This document shows, in pieces, positions 26,236 to 59,486 of a stretch of DNA of 64,000 nucleotides. This DNA is from Eledone cirrhosa (Eukaryota): NCBI GenBank assembly GCA_964016885.1, contig OZ024741.1:140306001-140370000 (forward strand), read 5' to 3'. Both the position numbers and the translations under genes were made by a program. The stretch's first letter is position 1, and each line of letters starts with the position of its first letter. The notes under the pieces are model-generated. The model did not search any database. It was not told the DNA's origin and saw only the letters and a list, made by a program, of their open reading frames with translations.

Positions 26236-26532
26236 TGGACAGATTTACTTTTGCCGATAAGCGTTGACAGAACAGAATGTTATTGTAGTTGTTGTTGTTA
26301 TTGGTGGTGGTGGTGGTCCTGTTGCTGTTTGAAATTTTCCTTGAATTCTGCTTTTTCCCTTGTATCATGCTGAGTGTCTACCTTACAGCTGAAGCAAAAA
26401 TTGGTAATACACATTTTAAAATCAATTGTCATACAAATGATTCATAATTTTATCGCTCTGTCACGCAGTGCAGATGGATAATGCATCGGGGTACATAGTC
26501 ATCCGTTGTTGTTATTATTATTATCATTATTA

Positions 26533-29395
26533 GTCGTGGAAGTGAAGGGACGTACTATTATGAGCTCGAGTAAGTTTTGCTCTTTCTACGGTTTTAAATA
26601 CGTTTGTTATTAAAATATTGTTCCAAAAGGGGCATAATACTTTAGTCTTTGTCCTCAAAATATTTGGACCTTTGGGCAAATATTTAACATTTGTGTGTTT
26701 AAAAGAAAGTTTTTATCGAAAAAAGACACAAAACATGGTGGAACCACGGCCCCAACTTTGAATTTCCTGTCGTGCGACAACGAGTTAAAAGTTGAGTCTA
26801 ATAAAGCTACCCCTCCCGCAACAATTTTAAAATGTAACAACGCATCAGACAATACCGCCAACACCAGAACCACCAACAACAGTGAGAACACTAATATAAA
26901 GAAAGATGACAACATCAACAACAGTAAAAACAGTCGTGAACAAGAACGACAACAGTACCAGCAACAACGTCAGCAACACCAACGACAGCAAGAACGACAA
27001 AAAAGACAACAATATCAACAACAGTAACAAACACAACAACAGCAGCAACAACAACAAGAAAAACAACAAAAGCAGCAGTAACGTCGAAATCACACAGCAG
27101 ATAGGAGCCGCCTAAACTACATCATTCGCGAAGGCTGCCAAAGATGTTGAACCAGTACGCGTAAGTGACACGCAGATGAGGCAGGCCAAGCTGTTGGTTA
27201 AAAAAACAGGACACAGATAAGACTCACCCACCCACCCGACATGATGAAAAACTGACGTCTGTCTATGGTCTCCTACCGTACACTTGGATTCAAATAGCGC
27301 CGGGTGGAACAGACGACCGAGTCGCAGGTCCAAACGGCTATGAGTGCGCTCTGGGCACAGAAAACCTATATAGCCCGAGGATCAAAGTATGGCACAGTGG
27401 ATGTTCTCTTCGCTACACCCTAAGAAGCCAGAGCACTCTCCATTACGCCAATCAGCAGTGACAAAATCGTGATGGTGCCGACATACTGCGGCCAGAGAGT
27501 CGCGAGGGTCCGAGTGACCCAGAATCCACTCTCAGTGGAGTTCTCTTGGCTGGTGGCGGCCGTCTTCGCTGATGTCGAGGAGTCAATAAGAATCCTAGAC
27601 TTCATGGGTATAAGACAAGCATAGAGGCCATCCTTGATGTGATTGACCTTGATGACGGCAGCCATCTAACCATGACAGTCGAAGGTAGGCGCCCAAGGTG
27701 TCACGAGACGGAGACAAAACCCACCTTAAAGCCTTCTGCTCCAAACTCACTAAGGCGGGTACGCGCTCCCCGTTTCTCCTTACGCCATACCCCGTGGCTG
27801 GAGTGGCCAAACTATCTGAGGCGGCACTGGCAGAAAACCTACCAGCACCAGTGACACCAACAACAAAAACACCCTCTCCACTACCAACAGCACCAAAAAA
27901 AAACAGTGGAGAGCATGCTCCTTCCCGATATCGCTAAATCGGACAAAGAGTGCGATGACACTGAAGGGTGGAAAACCATCGTAGCGAAAACAAAAAGAAA
28001 GAGCTCCCTACCTTCGGCATAATAAAAAGAGGAGGAAAAAACAAAACAAAAATGAAAAAGTCAACGACCCCAACTCCATCAATATCAACAGCCACACGCT
28101 CAAAACTACCTACACAATCACCATCACCACCACCGACACCACCACCTCCATCATTATCATCTATCCCATCGTCACCTCCAGCAACACCACAGCAAACACA
28201 GAAAGCACCAACATCTCAAAAGCAGACACAATACAAAAAATATAGACACAGACAACACAAAGCTTTTAAATAACATTCAACACTACACCATCACAATAAC
28301 AAATTACATAGAAACCACCAAAATTGTATACTCCTCCACCCCCCACCACACACACACTCACATAGCAATAATAGAAAGCTCTCAAAAGAATTACACAACA
28401 TTAAAGAAAACGTTCCCCGCAGCAATCGAAAACTATCGAGGGAACCTCACCAAAATAATTTATCCTGACAATCTCGTGCAGAGATCCACCACTGGTCGGA
28501 GGGATAGATCACCCTCCCACTTCCTAAAAAAAGTCAAAGGTAAAGTTTTATTTTTTAAACTTTTCCCCTCTCATTTGTTTTCCTCCTATCTTAGCAACAT
28601 GGCTTCTATAAGGATAAGCAGTATAAATGCACGTGACCTGGGATCGTCTTGGAAGCAGGGCCACCTGCCCAACGATCTCAGATTGCTAAACATAGATGTG
28701 GTGACCATCAGCGAGACTAGAATCATCAAGGCACGGGCATTCACACCCATTTTCGGTGATCACGAAATGTACACATCTCCAAGCCTTCCGAGATCTAGGG
28801 GAGGAGTGGCTGTGTTGTTCCGGAGAAGTCTGCATCTCGAGATACGGGCCATCTTCTTCGACACAGAAGGTAAATTAGTGGTGTTTGACGTGACCAGCGG
28901 AGAAGGGCAAGTTTTTCAGGCTAGTGGCCGTCTATGCCGCAACAGGAGCAGGAAGACCTGAATTCTTCAGGCGCCCGGTGATCTTTCTTGGAACATCTCG
29001 CTCTTTAGTGTTAGTGGGTGACTTGAACGGGATCTTGGATGCACGCTGGGATTGTGTGGGATTAGTGGATAGGGGAGGAGGGAGTAAAAACCTCACAAAC
29101 CTGCTCAGACGTTTCCAACTCTCTGAGAGTAGATTGAAATCGGAGAACTAAGCGAGGGCACTTGGTCTGTTGTTCAGGGTCACCGTGGCTTTTTTAATGG
29201 GCTTTCTCCACGAATGACCCTCGGATATCTCTCCTCCACCCCATTGGGGAATTCTCCTTTGTTTCTTTTTTTGTCACTTCCTTTGTTATTGCTTTTTTTC
29301 TTTACACGTAGAAATACCCAGTTGTACCGTCCTGTACTGTCCTTAATGTTATACTTTATGTCAACCCTTGTGGTTAATAAAGAAAGCACTATTAA
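26533..29395 (+). mobile_element. Degenerate, internally deleted Tx1-type LINE with 17-bp TSD
   Basis: Broken ORF1 (VEGRRPRC knuckle region); APE N-terminus from 28599 homologous to 55563; jumps to the 3' end at ~29125; TSD tattattatcattatta at 26516-26532 and 29396-29412. Confidence 0.88.
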
Positions 29396-29427
29396 TATTA
29401 TTATCATTATTATTATTATTTCCAAGT

Positions 29428-58500: not shown

Positions 58501-58982
58501 GCTACCGAGGAGCCTTGCCAGTTCGGGATAAACTCTACAGGCATGGAGGTGCCGTCAGCCGGGCATGTCCGAGATGCGCGCAGGGCGACGAAACCGCCCT
58601 GCACGCACTCGTCCAGTGTCCGAAAATTGCTGACTTGTGGGTTTATGTCGAACACCTGCTGTCGCGTTTAGGACGGATCCAGCTATCATCTGAGTCTATC
58701 GTGAGGATTGCCCCGCCCTCCTCCTTTAGCCGGGAAGGGCAGGCAGTTTTTATCTGTCTGGTGGCCATGGCGAAAGAGATAGTATGGTGGACACGTTTGA
58801 AAGGGCTGAAGACGAGCACTTACCTCTTCGGTGATGCTCTGATTGACTTTTTCAAATTTCATTTGAAAAGGAAAATCAGAGTAGAGAGGGAAGTGCTCTC
58901 TTCCCAGCATTTTGTTGAAAGATGGGTGAGAGAAGCAAGAATGGCCCGAGTGAATGGGCCGACTCTGAGTATATATCTGTAA
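55563..58982 (+). CDS. LINE ORF2: AP endonuclease + reverse transcriptase + CCHC (1139 aa, intact)
   Basis: SINARG, ISET, VYAP, GDWN, YLDR, TDH, GYWKLN; SPGLDG, FRPITLLN, DQSKAFDRVDH, RQGCPLS, YADD; CPRC..ETALH..C. Confidence 0.96.
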   Translation: MTSLRIGSINARGLGSSWKQGHLLNDLRSLNIDVVAISETRISEARAFAAIFGGYDVYASPSRPGSGGGVAVLFRRGLDLAIRAIFLDPEGKLVVLDVTSGDGQAFRLVAVYAPTGAGRPDFFRRLDSFLGTSRSLVLVGDWNGILDARWDCVGLADRGGGCKSLTNLLRRFELSDRYRLDFPNVPMWTWTNRIGSSRSYLDRVFCREIDRSSIGCPQFKIVSYTDHKFVICVLDLDRLHRRGPGYWKLNASLPARKAYRDRISELVKRALTGAIVNNKWWFAMKRAIRIESIRFSKALAIEKNRAEGELVRKLDEALSKGIATDVLAAKLALDQFFNAKHEGCVVRARVRALRHEGTKAVQWARVAEARRGNKATIRSLVDHDGRMLLDPGQMCEAFQRHFAQLFGSSGGPGRGMDFSVYLDGLPRLSATEAKCCEKPITAAEVREAMTGCTRGKSPGLDGLPYELYVQMPDLFGGLLADVYCNWQQNGRIPSSVSRGAVALLRKDPNKGDNIDNFRPITLLNTEFKILAKVLAKRLALVVGGLVGEAQTCAIPDRSIHDNLHLMRYIVERVAREPGTGGSLINLDQSKAFDRVDHRYLAAVLRAAGFGPVFRGWIAAMHSDICSVVRVNGHLSEPFNIMRSVRQGCPLSSLLYVLTLEPLLHKLETLRGVPRELGCGRSVSAYADDVTVVVSNAKHIEAIGTTLREYEAVTGAMINQEKSVGLQLGTWRGRSMPSNSVVGRWTDGPVKLLGVWFGPDLQTDKNWDEVTSRVASLTQKWAERKLSLKGRAEVANAYIASVICYRLTVVPCPKPRLTALERLLFRFLWKGRAPMVRRSICCQHPLRGGLGMPWLMMRRHALRLRHLHLFLDGDQVWSPFARRVFPQLVSLTELQSWVKRRPRGSAWRLECLQALTALDQSGNVIGGNSTSAFYRGLVEGKSDDVLGETLGVDENQLANLFGRTFGPGPMDNFQKSLAWQCYRGALPVRDKLYRHGGAVSRACPRCAQGDETALHALVQCPKIADLWVYVEHLLSRLGRIQLSSESIVRIAPPSSFSREGQAVFICLVAMAKEIVWWTRLKGLKTSTYLFGDALIDFFKFHLKRKIRVEREVLSSQHFVERWVREARMARVNGPTLSIYL

Positions 58983-59486
58983 ACTAAAGGTGGAAAACTG
59001 GGAGAGGGCACTTGCCTTGGTGGTCAGGGTCATTGTGGCTTTTTACTGGGCTTTCTCCACAAATGTCCCTCCGAAGTCTCCCCCCTATTGGGGAATTTTT
59101 CATTGTTATTTTTTGTTACATCCTCTGTTTTTGTTTTTTACACGCAGAAATGCCCATTTGTACCGTCCTGCATTGTCCTGCACTGTCCTTAATGTCTACT
59201 TTATGTAAACCCTTGTGGTTAATAAAGAAATCATTATTATTATTATTATTATTATTATTATTATTATTATTATTATTGGCGACCTACGTAGGAAATCGTA
59301 TTATCGTGAGCTCCGCAAAGGTTTGTTATTTCCGTTTGTTAAAAAATTTCCATTTATGGAAAATTTTATTGTAAACTGTTTATAAGCACACACACATTGT
59401 TTTCCGAAAAGGACACCCAAAAAGATTGGGGCCTTGTGCCCAAAATTTTAACTTTTATTATTATCCAAAAATTTCTTTGAAAAAAA

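Follow-up and report, generated by a model that had tools for sequence, protein, structure and literature searches.

Which element mobilizes the abundant short interspersed element (SINE) of an octopod genome? The question is raised by a stretch of DNA from Eledone cirrhosa (assembly GCA_964016885.1, contig OZ024741.1, positions 140,306,001 to 140,370,000 of the forward strand). This whole stretch of 64,000 nucleotides is referred to as the window, and positions are given from its first base. SINE copies are found there along with three copies of a single long interspersed element (LINE) family. An earlier reading of the window (the original prediction) assigned the SINE to this LINE. According to the present analysis, the SINE is probably reverse-transcribed in trans by the proteins of this ATT-specific LINE family of the L1 group. 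The pairing is supported by a shared target, a shared orientation, a shared tail module, the lack of a rival carrier of the SINE tail and the presence of chimeras.

The LINE family and its (ATT)n target

The three LINE copies (A, B and C) are all found on the + strand, with ATT repeats beside each (self-comparison and direct reading). The corresponding features are the following.

26514-26532, +: ATT-rich target 5′ of LINE copy A
26533-29387, +: LINE copy A, with an internal deletion; tail CCCTTGTGGTTAATAAAGAAAGC
29388-29412, +: decayed ATT units ACTATTAAT, then the 3′ copy (29397-29412) of the target site duplication (TSD) of LINE copy A
53195-53212, +: (ATT)6 immediately 5′ of LINE copy B, in phase with the first base of copy B
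53213-59232, +: LINE copy B, full length
59208-59232, +: tail of LINE copy B, i.e. a predicted hairpin AACC-CTTGT-GGTT (59208-59220), then AATAAAGAAATC
59233-59277, +: (ATT)15, tail of LINE copy B and landing site of LINE copy C
59278-64000, +: LINE copy C, in tandem with copy B, continuing past the end of the window

Copy B includes a first open reading frame (ORF1; ATG at 53429) that is split into two frames (53378-54334 and 54103-55527) and encodes a CCHC knuckle. Its ORF2 is open (ATG at 55563, stop at 58982; 1139 amino acids) and is followed by a 3′ untranslated region (UTR) of 250 bp, with an AATAAA signal 8 nucleotides before the end of the element. In copy A, which is 78-82% identical to copy B, the 5′ part and an ORF1-like region are followed by the first ~540 bp of endonuclease sequence and, across the deletion, by the last ~275 bp. 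Copy C has a 5′ part and an ORF1 unlike those of copy B (ORF1: 59487-60980, open, 497 amino acids, CCHC). Its ORF2 is 95.8% identical to that of copy B over 61423-64000 but is broken into several frames.

Three Pfam domains are found in ORF2 of copy B: Exo_endo_phos (residues 87-275), RVT_1 (576-819) and zf-RVT (1039-1091). Residues 69-920 align collinearly, in a single stretch, with residues 7-874 of human L1 ORF2p (E 9e-53); R2 proteins match ORF2 in the reverse transcriptase domain only. The features characteristic of the L1 group are thus present: an apurinic/apyrimidinic (AP)-type endonuclease, a reverse transcriptase and a C-terminal Cys/His motif in ORF2, and a separate upstream ORF1. 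Judged from its proteins and its insertion sites, the family belongs to the L1 group and is (ATT)n-specific. ORF1 has no match in Pfam or PDB. The closest named relative is a hypothetical protein of Argonauta hians (71% identity). Clade names are lacking among the 120 best homologues and 10 clusters, and the names given by the protein atlas are generic. Both 'L1-Tx1' and 'L1' classes appear in a published octopus annotation (PMC13282606). The original prediction named the family a Tx1 element; the affinity demonstrated here is to the L1 group. Target-specific insertion, which is typical of the Tx1 clade without defining it, is found in this family.

Genome-wide counts of both elements were obtained by pattern matching in the 3.0-Gb genome. 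The 21-base LINE tail CCCTTGTGGTTAATAAAGAAA has at least 16,406 matches with one mismatch or none; the reversed control has 0. The copies of the main lineage, at 94-98% identity to copy B, are young. A further lineage has 1,746 tails, an ORF2 that is 74-80% identical at the protein level and a GGCC...GGCC stem, and another stem variant also belongs to the family. Many tail matches lie ~6 kb apart on the same strand and therefore correspond to head-to-tail tandem arrays. The first 26 bases of copy B have 2,640 matches.

The original prediction stated that the LINE targets (ATT)n, and this is borne out: in all 30 sampled loci, the full-length 5′ end lies directly behind an in-phase (ATT)n with n of at least 4. 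The repeat is itself preceded by a LINE tail (12 loci), a SINE tail (6) or other DNA (12). On the 3′ side, at least three ATT units follow 55 of the 70 sampled tails (median 9). Three LINE TSDs, each consisting of ATTATT followed by unique sequence, were delimited: copy A (16 bp), L191 (16 bp) and L262 (14 bp). The TSD of copy A is ATTATTATCATTATTA (26517-26532 and 29397-29412). An ATC variant is present in both of its copies, so the repeat is the target of copy A and not merely its tail. The 5′-truncated copies of L177, L212 and L015 have no ATT on their 5′ side. An empty site corresponding to 29150-29950 was sought in the contigs of four sequencing runs, where short repeat contigs only, and no bridging piece, were found.

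Some other observations concern this family. Sampled 31-base words of the LINE 3′ region (58500-59244) are found at shares of 0.64-0.94 in contig sets under three organism codes, so near-identical LINE copies exist beyond one record. A second small hairpin, with a loop resembling that of the 3′ tail, is found in the 5′ UTR of copy B (53387-53400) and of copy C (59428-59444). Among 25 B-type copies, 16 have GGGT-TTTGT-ACCC and 6 end in GCCC instead, and C-type copies have GGGC-CTTGT-GCCC; the closing pair of this hairpin therefore varies between U-A, U-G and C-G. An element of ~0.9 kb (L104:655-1574) begins with ...TCTCAGTCATTGATG directly after (ATT)n and ends in a LINE-variant tail. Its 5′ end is also found behind (ATT)n in L002-L005, L008, L016, L019, L029 and others. 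It has the appearance of a non-autonomous element derived from this LINE family. L185 is more extreme: 8 bases of the LINE 5′ end are fused to the last 333 bp.

The SINE: target, tail and chimeras

The SINE copies of the window considered here are the following.

29412-29625, +: SINE (29428-29609) just behind the tail of LINE copy A; 16-bp TSD ATTATTATTTCCAAGT at 29412-29427 and 29610-29625
19247-19317, +: 5′-truncated SINE (19263-19301); 16-bp TSD ATTATTATYACAACCG, one mismatch, at 19247-19262 and 19302-19317
19408-19661, +: SINE with tail type 2 (19427-19642), tail CCTATATAAGAAACC; 19-bp TSD, one mismatch, at 19408-19426 and 19643-19661
31793-31975, +: SINE copy within an (ATT)n run
50532-50712, -: SINE copy; ATTATT begins the flank on either side
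11990-12404, -: two tandem SINE copies with a single common TSD (ATTATTAAATGGG...)

This SINE is presumably of the Deu/Nin-DC type, in line with its label in the original prediction. A B-box-like GAGTTCAAATCCC was recognized by eye only. No tRNA head was detected with ARAGORN, nor was there any Rfam match at E values up to 1. The main octopus SINEs are termed tRNA-Deu in the accessible part of PMC8967140.

The exact 24-base SINE tail has 63,723 matches in the genome. The sequence behind SINE 3′ ends was read in 264 kb that had not been selected by the SINE tail (20 arbitrary 10-kb stretches and the window; 35 SINE ends). ATTAT follows 31 of the 35 ends, and the remaining four are followed by one-base variants or decayed sequence; 12 of the 35 continue through ATTATTAT or more (manual count). 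A TSD of at least 8 bp was found for 49 of 81 copies (median 15 bp; range 8-21, plus one of 30). In these 49 copies, positions +1 to +6 of the TSD are A, T, T, A, T and T in 48, 49, 47, 47, 47 and 44 cases, respectively, and the base at -1 is never G. The SINE and the LINE thus join the repeat at one point, ...C/A|ATTATT, in one orientation, with similar TSD lengths (SINE median 15 bp; LINE 16, 16 and 14 bp, n=3). Insertion of both elements in the same orientation before ATTATT had been proposed in the original prediction and is confirmed. So are the TSDs of 16-19 bp that it gave for LINE copy A and three SINEs of the window, which measure 16, 16, 19 and 16 bp. The ages of the two elements overlap: pairwise distances have a median of 0.103 among 11 SINE copies and of 0.086 among 79 LINE copies (3′ 250 bp).

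Tandem arrays of 2-4 SINE copies with one TSD for the whole array are common; examples are found in the window (11990-12404) and in L217, L223, L227 and L233. Such arrays would be expected if the target is recreated at each insertion. At 18977-19070 and 32999-33038 (-), a partial duplication of the SINE tail is followed by ...ATTAATATTCGAAAAACTCA; its presence at both places suggests a larger composite repeat containing SINE ends.

In LINE tails, the block CCTTGTG begins at 59211 and 29366; in SINE tails, it begins at 29588 and 19621. All tail strings were found where they had been reported. When anchored at the ATT junction, the LINE tail is identical to the SINE tail at 15 (type 1) or 16 (type 2) of 24 positions. 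Over 788 other sites preceding ATTATT, the mean is 7.0 and the standard deviation 2.4. Eight of these sites reach 15, and most top scorers are visibly decayed LINE or SINE tails. Measured against this null, the likeness over 24 bases lies 3.3-3.7 standard deviations higher, i.e. it exceeds chance in this alignment. The parallel drawn in the original prediction between the two 3′ ends is therefore retained as a partial one: stringent sharing is not found, the likeness being short.

In the invariant block CCTTGTG, the outer C and G may pair and so close a CTTGT loop. Stems were aligned in 8 hand-picked rows, of which four are SINE rows, two come from the main LINE and two from LINE variants. Pairing is kept in 24 of 24 cells for the three inner pairs, as compared with 19-59% of cells in slid-column controls. 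Compensatory changes are found in two stem pairs: C-G in LINEs is replaced by G-C in the SINE, and A-U in the main LINE lineage by G-C elsewhere. Among 100 listed LINE tails, ~75 have AACC...GGTT and ~15 have AGCC...GGCC (manual tally). The putative CTTGT-loop hairpin is a reasonable, unproven candidate for a shared tail element. One copy of a third LINE lineage ends in GAAACA; this lineage was considered as nearer to the SINE tail and was ruled out, its usual end being GAAATC.

Another LINE matching the SINE tail better was sought in the genome. In only 4 of the 63,723 exact 24-base tails does the upstream 8-mer differ from that of the SINE at all eight positions. When the anchor was moved 22 or 44 bases inward, 29 and 34 matches of non-SINE type were obtained; 13 of these were inspected, and all proved to be type-2 SINE bodies, copies with truncations or deletions, or single unrelated sequences. 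No recurrent non-SINE carrier of the SINE tail was found in the genome with these exact anchors, which a rare or diverged partner would escape. Two candidates were rejected. Matches to ...AAAAAC-ATTGCTGG are SINE type-2 bodies, and the ORF2 matches found there come from neighbouring LINE copies. The LINE 3′ UTR motif combined with the SINE-type stem CCTTGTGCC has 17 matches in the genome; these are all mutated copies or chimeras and do not form a lineage of their own.

Six chimeras were found among these 17 matches and in two directed searches. Four consist of a LINE body with a SINE tail (L098, with 1.3 kb of LINE, L101, L102 and L096) and two of a SINE body with a LINE tail (L172 and L173). 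They involve both main and variant LINE lineages. All six are followed by ATT units, and in five the junction is located in or at the CCTTGTG block or hairpin. The simplest reading is template switching between LINE and SINE RNAs during reverse transcription; the two chimeras with a SINE body would have started on the LINE tail.

Alternatives, putative mechanism and known systems

Several points weigh against the assignment of the SINE to this LINE family. In the comparison of target profiles that had been proposed as a check, junction, orientation and TSD length are alike, but the length of the ATT run differs: a median of 2 units follows the SINE tail (at least 3 in 4 of 30) versus 9 for the LINE. 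The two age samples are of limited size, that of the LINE having been selected by its tail. Identity between the tails is 60-67% only and falls to chance level beyond 24 nucleotides (17/30, 20/40); the stem halves differ in sequence between the two elements. Stem covariation comes from about four independent lineages in self-chosen rows. Predicted folds are no better than those of shuffled sequences (LINE hairpin: -5.2 kcal/mol, z -0.6; LINE tail: z -0.6 and -0.5; SINE tail: z +1.1, -1.35 and -0.02), and one typical SINE copy favours an alternative fold, GCAC...GUGC, that uses the loop bases. The chimeras are few (six in 3 Gb) and could result from DNA recombination between neighbouring copies. 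The reach of the exact anchors, given above, belongs here too.

Some of these points would also fit a LINE that uses ATT repeats, including those at SINE ends, as a landing pad only. The SINE would then be copied by another, unsampled LINE, and the likeness over 24 nucleotides would result from chance or from AT-rich convergence. The location of 6 of the 30 LINE 5′ ends behind SINE tails, the shortness of the likeness, the lack of energy support for the hairpin and the preference of the LINE for far longer ATT runs are in favour of this explanation. However, SINE TSDs begin with ATTATT at LINE-free sites, and the two elements share both junction point and orientation. The anchored likeness stands well above its null, hairpin-joined chimeras are found in both directions, and the genome yielded no other recurrent carrier of the SINE tail. 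The landing-pad explanation is considered unlikely. Instead of the lineage of the window, the partner could be another lineage of this LINE family, either a sibling or an extinct one. Chimeras that involve the main lineage as well as variant ones argue against this, as does the youth of main-lineage copies, whose age overlaps that of the SINE. Several lineages do share the same tail plan, with stems AACC/GGTT, AGCC/GGCC and GGCC/GGCC, and the GGC/GCC stem of the SINE is found in no living LINE lineage, the 17 CCTTGTGCC matches being what is described above. In addition, the lineage with 74-80% identity inserts in shorter ATT runs, nearer to the behaviour of the SINE; its run length is intermediate as judged by eye from a listing, not computed. 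A sibling partner appears quite improbable.

A LINE with a restriction-like endonuclease (Dong/R4-like) that inserts in the same microsatellite is a most improbable partner. With (AAT)n behind its 3′ end, such an element primes on the other strand, and at the junction its tail cannot be aligned with that of the SINE; neither SINE copies with (AAT)n behind them nor a tail shared with the SINE were seen. TSDs of ~15 bp fit AP-type endonucleases, which also counts against it. Such elements are nevertheless common on ATT repeats: (ATT)n ACAGTTGCATTTATC, which corresponds to their end, is repeatedly found behind LINE and SINE tails. Dong-R4 elements are listed as abundant in a published octopus annotation (PMC13282606).

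Mobilization of the SINE by the ATT-specific L1-group family could proceed as follows. The LINE endonuclease would nick the bottom strand after 5′-AATAAT-3′, and the freed 3′ end would anneal to the terminal AUU units of the RNA. Reverse transcription would start there, possibly after recognition of the CUUGU-loop hairpin and of the A-rich stretch just upstream. A second nick ~15 bp downstream would generate the TSD. LINE transcripts would read into the repeat and carry long AUU runs, which would direct them to long microsatellites. The SINE transcript is presumably a polymerase III product; with one or two AUU units only, it would settle at any ATTATT. The difference in ATT-run length between the two elements may thus reflect the number of AUU units in their RNAs. 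Each insertion would recreate the target at both ends, which may account for the tandem SINE arrays with a single TSD and for the LINE arrays. A broader proposal is put forward tentatively, at slightly less than even chances: an animal L1-group lineage would recognize its template twice (CUUGU-loop hairpin, then AUU annealing to ATT), and one tRNA-type SINE would have copied the 24-nucleotide module and so become the dominant octopod repeat. In the eel pair UnaL2/UnaSINE1, a small 3′ stem-loop and short terminal repeats are reportedly both needed to start reverse transcription, as is said to have been shown experimentally by Kajikawa and Okada in 2002. UnaL2 is said to belong to the L2 clade and to lack a microsatellite target; the model proposed here is alike and is drawn from sequence.

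The comparisons with other systems follow the accessible parts of the papers cited. Microsatellite-specific Tx1 elements include Kibi in (TC)n, Koshi in (TTC)n and crocodilian families in (TTCC)n/(TTTC)n (Kojima and Fujiwara 2004 as cited in Kojima 2015, PMC4494074). Like them, the present family is an L1-group LINE with an AP endonuclease, inserted in a fixed orientation in one microsatellite with repeat on both sides. Unlike them, it has an (ATT)n target and an octopod host, also uses short ATTATT and is placed at the level of the L1 group only. The crocodilian SINEU was assigned to the Tx1-type LINE Tx1-Mar by an unusual common target and overlapping ages (Kojima 2015, PMC4494074). The present pair is likewise linked by target preference and age overlap. 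In the crocodilian pair, the target is a Mariner transposon and a 5′ head is shared, whereas a 3′ junction, a 24-nucleotide tail likeness and chimeras link the present pair. Stringent pairs of the L1 clade are those of maize and sorghum SINEs with LINE1-1_ZM and of SINEX-3_CR with L1-1_CR in Chlamydomonas (Ohshima 2012, PMC3472496). These and the present pair have in common an L1-type LINE/SINE likeness at the 3′ end and a stem-loop, putative in the present pair, in which the stem varies by compensation around a conserved loop. The former belong to plants and a green alga, have a poly(A) end and share up to ~80 nucleotides; the latter belongs to an animal, has an (ATT)n end and shares 24 nucleotides at 60-67%.

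The kinds of relationship described here are therefore already known (microsatellite-specific Tx1 elements, target sharing between Tx1 and SINE, shared tails in the L1 clade); for this repeat and this host, such a partnership is apparently undescribed. The accessible parts of three papers on octopus repeats list L1-Tx1, L1, Dong-R4 and tRNA-Deu classes, and neither a LINE partner nor an ATT target of the octopus SINE is named there (PMC13282606, PMC8967140, PMC9115989). No description of this LINE/SINE pair was found in the searchable literature, subscription journals and Repbase Reports lying outside the search. SINEs and LINEs represent 11.7% and 13% of the O. vulgaris genome (PMC13282606), and the SINE expansion is considered specific to octopuses (PMC8967140). 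With a partner whose target (N|ATTATT) and 24-nucleotide tail module are defined, this expansion would become testable at the bench. The short list of L1-clade pairs with shared tails would gain an animal member, and the crowding of stacked elements on the ATT microsatellites of this genome would be explained. If double recognition by hairpin and AUU annealing were true, the octopus SINE expansion could be attributed to a named driver, and landing sites would be seeded by the pair itself.

Other elements on the repeat and in the window

A restriction-like endonuclease LINE of the kind weighed above is present in the window, outside the LINE/SINE pair.

51632-53194, -: 5′-truncated LINE with a restriction-like endonuclease motif (CCHC and RPD), ending ...GCAACTGT(AAT)7

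It is presumably Dong/R4-like. It represents the only other LINE type seen on the ATT microsatellite, where it lies in the opposite orientation. As it reads the repeat the other way, as (AAT)n, it cannot prime on an RNA ending in AUU. Tails of the type ...GCAACTGT(AAT)n are found behind many LINE and SINE tails (L010, L066, L091, L098, L200, L208, L212 and L219) and are landing sites for the ATT-specific LINE and the SINE. Other retroelements of the window include two Penelope-like ORFs with GIY-YIG and another LINE (Exo_endo_phos_2 and RVT_1) on the - strand; these elements are located at 39024-40193 (+), 4102-4932 (+) and 42977-46165 (-).

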